DNA of 64,000 nt, taken from the NCBI GenBank assembly GCA_031254195.1, contig JAIRUW010000060.1, positions 1,778-65,777 of the forward strand, written 5' to 3'. This document shows, piece after piece, positions 25,908 to 27,244 of this stretch (position 1 is its first letter; the number at the start of each line of letters is the position of its first letter). Position numbers and translations under genes: made by a program. The notes beneath the pieces were generated by a model. That model did no database searches. It had not been told where the DNA came from and worked only from the letters and a program-made list of their open reading frames with translations. The DNA comes from Oscillospiraceae bacterium. GTDB taxonomy: Bacteria > Bacillota > Clostridia > Oscillospirales > UBA929.

Positions 25908-26945
25908 ATGAGTGGGAATTGCTGTACAAGGAGTAGCTGTTGCTCGGGTAGTGCAGAAATCATACCGACTGTTTCAACATCTTTGTCGATTGGCGACATC
26001 ATCGGCGGGTGGAAAGCGCGTTGGGGTATCGGTCGGATGGATTACAAAGTCAAACCGGGGCTATACGCCGTTGGGAAGCCGGATGGCGATTCGCCCGTTT
26101 TGGTGAGTGCAAACTACAAGCTGACATTTGACATACTGCGGAAGAACCTGACCAGCTTGGATTGCTGGCTGTTGATTCTCGACACCAAGGGTATTAACGT
26201 GTGGTGTGCGGCGGGCAAGGGTACGTTCGGTACAGATGAATTGGTCAATCGCATAGAAGCGACAAGGCTTGCTGATGTGGTATCGCATAGAAAGCTGATA
26301 CTGCCGCAGCTTGGCGCGTCCGGGGTGAGCGCCCATGAGGTGGCGAAGCGGATGGGGTTTACCGTCACTTACGGCCCGGTGCGGGCAGAAGATATAAAGG
26401 CTTTTGTGGACGCCGGATATAAGGCCACTAAAGAGATGCGGACGGTGGAGTTTACGTTCAAAGACAGAATTGTGTTGACGCCGATGGAGTTAGTCCCGGC
26501 TGTTCAAATGGCGTTGCCTGTTCTCGGCGCTTTGTTTCTAACAAATCAGTTCGCCGCGAGGCCGTTTGACAAAAAAGATGTTACTGCATATCTCGGTGCT
26601 GTTCTCACTGGAGCTGTTGTTACACCGGCATTGCTCCCGCACATCCCCGGAAAGGCTTTCGCGTGGAAAGGCTGGCTGTTGGGATTAGGTTGGACGGCGG
26701 GTTACTTGGGGCTGTCTAAGCGCTTCAAAAAGGAAGATAGGCTCATGTCGGTGGGCGAACTGTTATTGATGCCTGCCGTATCATCCTTCCTCGCCATGAA
26801 CTTCACAGGTTCGTCCACCTATACATCACCGTCCGGCGTCAAAAAGGAAATGAAACGGGCATTGCCTTTGATTATCGGCTCTGCCGCCGTTGGCGGCGCG
26901 CTGATGCTCGGCGTTCATCTGTTTTTTCGGAGGAAAGCGAAATGA
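25908..26945 (+). CDS. hgcA: mercury methylation corrinoid protein HgcA
   Basis: 345 aa. Cap-helix signature GINVWCAAGKGTFGT, followed by a C-terminal multi-TM domain. Immediately followed by hgcB. Confidence 0.8.
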   Translation: MSGNCCTRSSCCSGSAEIIPTVSTSLSIGDIIGGWKARWGIGRMDYKVKPGLYAVGKPDGDSPVLVSANYKLTFDILRKNLTSLDCWLLILDTKGINVWCAAGKGTFGTDELVNRIEATRLADVVSHRKLILPQLGASGVSAHEVAKRMGFTVTYGPVRAEDIKAFVDAGYKATKEMRTVEFTFKDRIVLTPMELVPAVQMALPVLGALFLTNQFAARPFDKKDVTAYLGAVLTGAVVTPALLPHIPGKAFAWKGWLLGLGWTAGYLGLSKRFKKEDRLMSVGELLLMPAVSSFLAMNFTGSSTYTSPSGVKKEMKRALPLIIGSAAVGGALMLGVHLFFRRKAK

Positions 26946-27244
26946 ATCACAGGTATTTGAAGGATGTAACGACACTTTCCCTCTCCGCCAATCAATGCGT
27001 TGGCTGCGGACTGTGCGCGGAGGTTTGTCCTCATGGTGTGTTTACCGTAAACGATAGAAATGCGAAAATTACCGACAAAGACCTCTGCATGGAATGTGGT
27101 GCTTGCGCGAAGAACTGCCCGGCAAACGCAATCTCTGTCGACGCCGGGGTGGGCTGTGCCTACGCTTTCATCATGGGCTGGCTGACCGGGAGCGAACCAA
27201 GCTGTGATTGCTCCGGCGGCAGTAGTGATGCTTGCTGTTCATGA
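26942..27244 (+). CDS. hgcB: mercury methylation ferredoxin HgcB
   Basis: 100 aa. Two CxxCxxCxxxCP motifs (CVGCGLCAEVCP, CMECGACAKNCP) and a C-terminal vicinal Cys pair (ACCS). ATGA overlap with hgcA. Confidence 0.8.
   Translation: MNHRYLKDVTTLSLSANQCVGCGLCAEVCPHGVFTVNDRNAKITDKDLCMECGACAKNCPANAISVDAGVGCAYAFIMGWLTGSEPSCDCSGGSSDACCS

Follow-up and report, generated by a model that had tools for sequence, protein, structure and literature searches.

The 64,000-nucleotide stretch of DNA studied here (the window) comprises positions 1,778 to 65,777 of contig JAIRUW010000060.1 (C21:1778-65777) from assembly GCA_031254195.1 of an uncultured Oscillospiraceae bacterium and contains the adjacent genes hgcA (25908..26945) and hgcB (26942..27244), both on the plus strand. 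Sequence comparisons confirmed that the two are true orthologues of hgcA and hgcB, belonging to a well-defined and ordinary system, which to our knowledge is the sole known genetic marker of microbial methylmercury (MeHg) production. It is very likely that the pair encodes an HgcAB that methylates Hg(II) using a salvaged corrinoid, and that arsR and the promoter of the operon have been deleted, leaving hgcAB outside ArsR control. The genome is a 2.24-Mb metagenome-assembled genome (MAG) consisting of 80 contigs, with a completeness of 91% and a GC content of 55.6%.

Identification of hgcA and hgcB

HgcA (345 amino acids, start ATG at 25908) scored 470.9 bits against the NCBIfam profile NF040863 (HgcA_corrinoid, cutoff 275) over profile positions 1-322 of 325, and HgcB (100 amino acids) scored 130 bits against NF040864 (HgcB_ferredoxin, cutoff 99) over the complete profile (1-93 of 93). 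An earlier inspection of the DNA that used no databases (the sequence-only reading) had named both genes from their motifs and proposed such a profile search, which placed both proteins well over the cutoffs. A genome-wide search reproduced the result for HgcA, and hgcA is present in a single copy. Pfam matches for the pair consisted of the CdhD domain (PF03599, 56.6 bits on HgcA), which is shared with CFeSP (corrinoid iron-sulfur protein), and of the Fer4 domains on HgcB (Fer4 and Fer4_7); nothing else was matched. Proteins of this kind are already named automatically by PGAP, the annotation pipeline.

The hgcA stop and the hgcB start are joined in an ATGA overlap, and GGAGG is located 8 nucleotides (nt) before the hgcB ATG, which is the standard sequence layout for translational coupling. 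Wherever a related locus was long enough for the arrangement to be seen, hgcA and hgcB were adjacent in essentially all cases. Since the ratio of nonsynonymous to synonymous substitution rates (dN/dS) compared with the nearest HgcA homologue was 0.07, hgcA is under strong purifying selection.

Two related families, both of which the sequence-only reading had cautioned might be mistaken for the pair, were considered and rejected. Against the fused HgcAB-like profile (NF043039, cutoff 285), HgcA scored 207.9 bits and HgcB 57.2 bits, and the window carries two separate open reading frames (ORFs). Against the CFeSP gamma/large subunit (NF003195, cutoff 306), HgcA scored 83.4 bits, the match was limited to profile positions 322-445, and HgcA possesses a transmembrane domain. 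A profile search detected no CFeSP paralogue in the genome.

HgcA contains GINVWCAAGKGTFGT, in which the cap-helix motif NVWCAAGK (residues 97-104; 26196..26219, plus strand) includes the Co-ligand Cys100 (26205-26207), the counterpart of Cys93 in Pseudodesulfovibrio mercurii (Desulfovibrio desulfuricans) ND132 (PMC7305189). The motif is the same in all 95 homologues, the cap-helix Cys and its neighbouring residues being invariant, whereas the CFeSP stretch aligned with it by phmmer reads SVLTAWAAGKF and lacks the Cys. The CFeSP-like corrinoid-binding domain (residues 19-170; 25962..26417, plus strand) was recognised by PF03599, phmmer and Foldseek. In the PDB, phmmer matched the CFeSP large subunits 2h9a and 4c1n across HgcA residues 47-168; the sequence search returned only CFeSP chains (C-terminal corrinoid domain), and the HgcAB model surfaced in the fold search alone. 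There, the ND132 HgcAB integrative model 9a0b_A was the best Foldseek match (44% identity, E 9.8e-24); CFeSP corrinoid domains came next, with a root mean square deviation of 2.7-3.0 Å over 124-131 columns and 22-28% identity.

The AlphaFold2 (AF2) model of HgcA was built from the 95 homologues and reached a mean predicted local distance difference test (pLDDT) score of 82.2; an earlier model from 16 sequences was dropped (pLDDT 54). A transmembrane domain of five helices occupies residues 191-339 (26478..26924, plus strand), the helices in the AF2 model spanning residues 191-213, 222-241, 251-269, 275-302 and 308-339; the hydropathy profile showed four clear peaks and one weaker segment. Profile, motif and structure model agree with the proposal of the sequence-only reading that a cap-helix signature is followed by a C-terminal domain with several transmembrane helices.

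Ahead of the corrinoid-binding domain, HgcA carries a CCx4CC motif (CCTRSSCC, residues 5-12; 25920..25943, plus strand), in which C5, C6 and C12 are nearly invariant among close homologues; the N-terminal 16 residues are predicted to be disordered (pLDDT <50 in AF2). The deposited gene call (P0001, 320 amino acids) begins at an internal TTG 25 codons late and thereby leaves out the 25 conserved N-terminal residues (25908-25982), the Cys motif included. Because homologues of 343-346 amino acids align from residue 1 with M1 conserved, and because the arsR stop of the nearest relative overlaps the same ATG, the ATG at 25908 is taken as the real start of hgcA. The CC..CC motif is present in most of the 32-sequence Firmicutes-type HgcA clade described below, and the literature searched yielded no account of it. 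The arm of the clade can be written as a disordered CC(C)x4-5CC and is mostly intact where arsR lies upstream. In several relatives without arsR it is eroded, G004 retaining one CC and G021, L009 and L032 none; it is kept in the arsR-less HgcAs of the window, L025 and L060. The ArsR proteins of the clade end in ...GCC just ahead of the HgcA Cys motif.

In HgcB, the cluster motifs CVGCGLCAEVCP and CMECGACAKNCP are followed by C72 and then by the tail CDCSGGSSDACC-S, the C-terminal end reading ...SCDCSGGSSDACCS. The two CxxCxxCxxxCP motifs (C19-P30 and C49-P60; 26996-27031 and 27086-27121, together 26996..27121, plus strand) were identified from the translation and from Fer4/Fer4_7, and the Cys residues behind them, Cys72 (27155-27157) and the tail C88, C90, C98 and C99 (27203-27238), from the alignment (27155..27238, plus strand). 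These motifs and the NF040864 match uphold the reading of this ORF as a 2x[4Fe-4S] ferredoxin with a vicinal Cys pair at its end. All of the 67 related HgcB proteins aligned have the equivalent of ND132 Cys73, and 48 of the 67 have four tail Cys. Mutagenesis in ND132 has shown that HgcA Cys93, HgcB Cys73 and HgcB Cys94/95 matter (PMC7305189); their counterparts are all present here (HgcA C100, HgcB C72 and C98/C99), with C88 and C90 in addition.

Deletion of arsR and transcription of hgcAB

The nearest HgcA (P0002, 88% identity) is encoded on a Joint Genome Institute (JGI) contig, L109, where the stop of an ArsR-family gene (HTH_5/HTH_20) overlaps the hgcA start. The order arsR-hgcA-hgcB is the same in L110, L111 and L112 (79-80% HgcA identity), so that arsR lies directly upstream in all four loci with an HgcA 79-88% identical to that of the window. 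Overall, arsR is adjacent in 37 of 88 hgcA-bearing sequences, a set in which the window too is counted, along with a few duplicate views of one locus; the 37 include most of the 32-sequence clade. In L112, an additional ORF of 77 amino acids without a Pfam match (773-1006) lies between arsR and hgcA and overlaps both.

In the window, only the 3' end of arsR is left (25879..25911, plus strand), consisting of the last ten codons and the stop (LETRNAGCCE*) and also carrying the ribosome-binding region of hgcA. Of the 30 nt that precede the hgcA ATG, 29 are identical to L109 and 26 to L111. Upstream of 25879, by contrast with this match, 80 nt agree with L109 at chance level (2-5 per 10). Read in the arsR frame, the relic gives LETRNAGCCE-stop, the same as the C-terminus of the L109 ArsR, and stop codons occur in this frame just upstream of it. 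A tblastn search of the whole genome with the L109 ArsR found nothing beyond the ten relic residues, and an HTH_5 search of the genome yielded one marginal match on another contig and no other close ArsR. For HgcC (NF040962), nothing in the genome scored above the cutoff, the best match reaching 28 bits on another contig. The sequence-only reading had seen no ArsR-type regulator next to the pair; this is correct, no ArsR ORF being present in the 107-nt gap upstream of hgcA, and the relic extends the observation to a deletion.

We conclude from these sequence comparisons that arsR and the operon promoter were deleted or recombined away, while the segment doubling as the translation-initiation region of hgcA was kept. 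The other relatives lacking arsR (G004, G021, L009 and L032) have unrelated upstream sequence and eroded N-terminal Cys motifs. Since the N-terminal motif is intact in the window and the relic is near-perfect, the sequence suggests that arsR was lost comparatively recently.

In ND132, the ArsR-like protein encoded upstream (ArsR2) controls transcription of hgcAB and responds to arsenic and S-adenosylhomocysteine (SAH) (bioRxiv 10.1101/2022.10.17.512643). With arsR deleted, the usual ArsR control cannot operate on hgcAB of the window, and with its promoter gone as well, expression would need either a weak local promoter or read-through. A weak sigma-70-like promoter candidate, TTGACT-17-TACACT (25842..25870, plus strand; 9/12 match), is located in the junction sequence. 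A pattern scan of the 107-nt gap revealed no terminator, and the fold z-score of 0.09 indicated no significant structure. As no terminator separates the upstream operon from hgcA, read-through is possible; judged from the sequence, transcription from a junction promoter and read-through from the exporter operon are both possible.

Phylogeny and related loci

A maximum-likelihood tree of 83 HgcAs grouped the HgcA of the window with those of G004 (same genus), G021 (same family), Emb289P1bin108 (Oscillospiraceae) and Cu122P5bin9, the last two being termite-gut MAGs, with a Shimodaira-Hasegawa-like approximate likelihood ratio test (SH-aLRT) value of 99. The next sequences out come from termite-gut MAGs labelled Treponema, Synergistaceae, Coriobacteriia and Proteobacteria, and together with the window group they fall inside the fully supported clade of 32 sequences dominated by Bacillota. 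The phylogeny proposed as a check in the sequence-only reading therefore places HgcA inside the Firmicutes-type clade, beside HgcAs of its own genus and family. A supported sub-clade (L025, L060, L040, L016, L010 and L020) unites termite-gut labels from different phyla with Oscillospiraceae sequences, which suggests either habitat-wide transfer across phyla in termite guts or mis-binned contigs.

The distribution of hgcAB is patchy, as had been stated in advance of any comparison: hgcA was found in 4 of 30 species genomes and 3 of 9 genera of the GTDB family, and in 2 of 8 genomes within the genus. The fourth HgcA of the family (G014) belongs to a different clade and lacks the N-terminal ~65 profile positions. 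At this locus (L004, G014:C145:21131-21892), the HgcA profile match begins only at position 66, unrelated in-frame sequence precedes it, and the branch length is 1.86; although the cap helix and hgcB are intact, this hgcA is, from its sequence, probably a 5'-truncated or decaying copy. Overall, tree and distribution point to an hgcA that was inherited within an Oscillospiraceae lineage, was often lost, and was also transferred among gut bacteria. This picture agrees with published views (PMC4646819, PMC7438021).

Gene order around hgcAB differs in every relative. In G021, parA-parB-serS adjoins hgcAB, and in L009 a DUF4130 and radical SAM (rSAM) gene pair lies downstream. In both the window and G021, SerS is encoded no more than about 10 kb away from hgcAB, and in Emb289P1bin108 on the same 17.5-kb contig, which hints at an old shared position near the origin region. 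A comparison with empty sites in the genus was uninformative because the genes are too extensively rearranged; the G001 orthologue of the rSAM gene and the G004 ABC pair both stand in unrelated contexts.

Genes of mobile elements were observed at several related loci. In the genome of the same genus (L106, G004:C14), an IS3-family transposase (OrfA/OrfB; 2188-3761) lies 255 bp upstream of hgcA; in L111, a large serine recombinase (4901-6292) follows 1 kb downstream of hgcB; and in L109, a Maff2 (conjugative-element) gene (183-317) is located upstream of arsR. According to the survey of McDaniel et al. 2020, no insertion sequences or transposases were found in the vicinity of hgcA (PMC7438021).

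Genome context and corrinoid supply

The pair is located mid-way in a 72.7-kb contig that also carries parA, parB, serS, spoVB and ribosomal genes; owing to this placement beside core genes, hgcAB is not a binning artefact. Proteins from MAGs labelled 'Oscillospiraceae bacterium' share 83-84% identity with SerS. The closest relatives of the ABC-2 permease encoded upstream of hgcA occur in the JGI datasets Ga0123353/55/56, Ga0131853 and Ga0099364, of which Ga0123355, Ga0131853 and Ga0099364 are linked to the Emb289, Lab288 and Th196 MAGs. These were obtained from guts of humus-/soil-feeding higher termites (Hervé et al. 2020, PMC7024585).

Neither CobQ/CbiP nor CobS was found in the 91%-complete MAG. 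As both are missing, the gene content makes import of corrinoids produced by neighbours the likeliest supply. The single cobalamin riboswitch (G000:C51:3979-5149) precedes genes for a DUF4430 protein and a multi-pass membrane protein. The DUF4430 protein (B12-binding-like) and the membrane protein (176 amino acids, no Pfam match) represent a candidate corrinoid uptake pair.

Genes adjacent to hgcAB

Upstream of hgcA, a cassette of genes for a TetR regulator, an ABC (ATP-binding cassette) ATPase and an ABC-2 permease (23433..25800, plus strand; Pfam, NCBIfam) lies outside the hgc system and is a possible source of read-through. Downstream, a convergent radical SAM gene of the rSAM_link_UDG type (27263..28459, minus strand; TIGR03916, 315.8 bits, under the cutoff of 343.5) is likewise not part of the system. 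The gaps are 107 nt between the permease gene and hgcA and 18 nt between hgcB and the radical SAM gene, and the arrangement described in the sequence-only reading, directly downstream of a TetR/ABC-2 exporter and convergent with a radical SAM gene, was thus found again. A Pfam/NCBIfam scan showed no ars, mer or dehalogenase genes adjacent to hgcAB.

The ABC-2 cassette recurs in many termite-gut contigs, with hgcA downstream in none of 80 metagenome loci, of which 40 offer at least 1.2 kb of downstream sequence; conversely, the neighbour genes of the window were beside hgcAB in none of 88 related loci. A functional link between hgcAB and TetR/ABC-2 through conserved synteny was rejected on these counts. 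By sequence, the juxtaposition of cassette and hgcAB is specific to this lineage and gives no evidence of a shared function. The TetR gene is flanked by inverted 24-nt arms (79% complementary) at 23476-23499, in the promoter, and at 24219-24242, before the ABC ATPase gene; in sequence they look like paired operators. An orthologue of the radical SAM gene is present in G001 (71%) in another context and without hgcAB. The radical SAM gene of the window has no DUF4130 partner and is abutted directly by hgcB, and in the termite MAG locus L009 (7529-9702) the DUF4130 partner stands between the radical SAM gene and hgcB.

The GC content at third codon positions (GC3) is 0.60 for hgcA and 0.57 for hgcB, and 0.51-0.65 in the block 23433-31149, compared to about 0.74-0.77 for parA, parB, serS and spoVB. 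As 28% of the 1-kb windows of the genome have a GC content <0.53, this low-GC patch is not exceptional. No flanking direct repeats, tRNA or integrase were detected around the block, and a tblastn comparison with PLSDB gave no match that would indicate a plasmid origin. A discrete genomic island was not supported, only the lowered GC3 pointing to it. Of the 'lower-GC accessory stretch' in which the sequence-only reading had placed the pair, the low-GC3 block stands, and for the discrete accessory island the support is compositional only.

Proposed mechanism and alternative explanations

In the proposed mechanism, a corrinoid that the organism would import and not make itself is bound by HgcA, which the five helices would anchor in the membrane. 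By analogy with ND132, the two [4Fe-4S] clusters of HgcB would reduce this corrinoid to Co(I). Methyl-tetrahydrofolate was the methyl donor proposed earlier. S-adenosylmethionine (SAM), the methyl donor according to Zheng et al. 2024 (PMC11588087), would methylate the HgcA corrinoid, and the resulting methyl-Co(III), again as in ND132, would have the Cys100 thiolate as its lower axial ligand. From there the methyl group may pass to Hg(II) bound by thiols, including those of the flexible HgcB tail (C98/C99), together with C72; in ND132, the Cys tail of HgcB carries both substrate and product back and forth (PMC7305189). The pair would descend from an arsR-hgcA-hgcB operon that lost arsR and the promoter by a deletion reaching to 30 nt ahead of the hgcA start; an unrelated TetR/ABC-2 exporter cassette now lies upstream.

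Some points weigh against this interpretation. Some hgcAB-positive cultured strains methylate very poorly, and the presence of hgcAB is therefore no guarantee of significant MeHg formation. The promoter candidate matches at 9 of 12 positions only, and such sites are no commoner than in shuffled sequence. Missing cobalamin genes or a missing trans-acting regulator are not proof, as the MAG is 91% complete. The 30-nt relic, finally, could be an ancestral leader to which arsR was joined later; this is much less parsimonious, since an arsR ending in ...GCC just before hgcA also occurs in distant members of the clade (L020 and L054).

Among the alternative explanations, it is possible, though rather unlikely, that HgcAB is real but methylates Hg as a side reaction, and that its selected function is another corrinoid reaction such as halomethane dehalogenation or one acting on arsenic or thiophilic metalloids. 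Dechlorination of CCl4 by heterologous HgcAB, with halomethanes proposed as native substrates, was described in a 2026 preprint (10.64898/2026.04.26.720869) and speaks for such a function. So do the operons of the closest relatives, headed by ArsR-type regulators that possess a CxC site and end in GCC, the response of ND132 ArsR2 to arsenic and SAH (10.1101/2022.10.17.512643), and the strong purifying selection in a habitat without obvious Hg exposure. However, nothing in the window bears on the choice of substrate, genes of the ars, mer or dehalogenase type being absent next to hgcAB, and a side reaction of this kind is compatible with Hg(II) methylation by HgcAB and no replacement for it.

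It appears distinctly unlikely that the locus is intact but silent or decaying, the operon promoter having been lost with arsR, so that hgcAB is not expressed and no Hg is methylated. Loss of arsR and of everything upstream of -30, the weakness of the sole promoter-like site, the eroded HgcA N-termini in the arsR-less relatives G021, L009 and L032, and the incomplete hgcA of G014 in the same family would fit such decay. On the other hand, neither ORF is disrupted and no critical residue is missing, the translation-initiation region of hgcA and its coupling to hgcB have been kept, the low dN/dS argues against decay, and read-through is possible in the absence of a terminator before hgcA.

A very doubtful idea is that the arsR deletion joined hgcAB transcriptionally to the TetR-controlled ABC-2 operon, forming a rewired 'methylate and export' unit in which the N-terminal CCx4CC arm of HgcA might capture the substrate. 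If true, this lineage would express a corrinoid methyltransferase together with an efflux pump, under a TetR repressor responsive to small molecules. Finally, a non-methylating paralogue (fused HgcAB-like or CFeSP-type) or a mis-binned or chimeric placement is hardly credible: PF03599 is common to CFeSP and many hgcA calls in MAGs stand on short contigs, but both competing models stayed under their cutoffs, the pair consists of two ORFs with a Cys-containing cap helix and a transmembrane domain, the contig is long with core genes matching Oscillospiraceae best, and HgcA clusters with HgcAs from genomes of the same genus and family.

Significance and comparison with known systems

With its firm placement on a long contig among core genes, the hgcAB pair adds to the likely methylators an Oscillospiraceae-type lineage, the nearest relatives of which originate from guts of humus-/soil-feeding termites. 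That MeHg enters terrestrial food webs through the guts of invertebrates is recognised but has received little study (PMC4646819). Lack of the regulator is of consequence when methylation activity is inferred from gene presence or from arsenic-responsive regulation; as the ArsR switch is gone, the expression rules of ND132 would not apply. The mobile-element genes near hgcAB in close relatives bear on the spread of the pair. Secure placement in a termite-gut-type Oscillospiraceae, the relic of the arsR deletion and the mobile-element genes beside hgcAB of relatives are what this locus adds.

Compared with ND132, whose methylase is biochemically characterised, the window shares the adjacent genes, the NVWCAAGK cap helix with the Co-ligand Cys, and the five transmembrane helices of HgcA, as well as the two CxxCxxCxxxCP motifs, the Cys73 equivalent and the C-terminal vicinal Cys of HgcB. 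Unlike ND132, the HgcA of the window has an N-terminal CCx4CC tail and its HgcB has four tail Cys instead of two. In ND132, arsR2 is located upstream and co-transcribed, whereas arsR is deleted in the window, and the host, unlike the sulfate reducer ND132, is a gut bacterium of the Oscillospiraceae type that lives by fermentation. The large subunit of CFeSP (AcsC/CdhE, Wood-Ljungdahl pathway) has a homologous Rossmann-like corrinoid-binding domain, but it possesses an N-terminal [4Fe-4S] domain and a TIM barrel and has neither the cap-helix Cys nor the transmembrane domain of HgcA. The fused HgcAB-like proteins combine related corrinoid and ferredoxin modules in one polypeptide, unlike the two ORFs found here, and in contrast to the hgcAB operon headed by HgcC, the AbrB-type HgcC gene is not beside hgcAB in the window.

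Another close likeness is to the arsR-hgcA-hgcB operons of the Firmicutes-type clade. HgcA is 79-88% identical to its counterparts in L109-L112 and 60-75% identical (best tblastn segment) to those of the MAG loci L010-L034, and the N-terminal Cys motif as well as the 30-nt junction before the hgcA start are held in common. Those operons possess an intact ArsR (HTH_5/HTH_20) with CxC in helix 3 and a C-terminal GCC, the arsR stop overlapping the hgcA start, whereas the window retains the last ten codons only.

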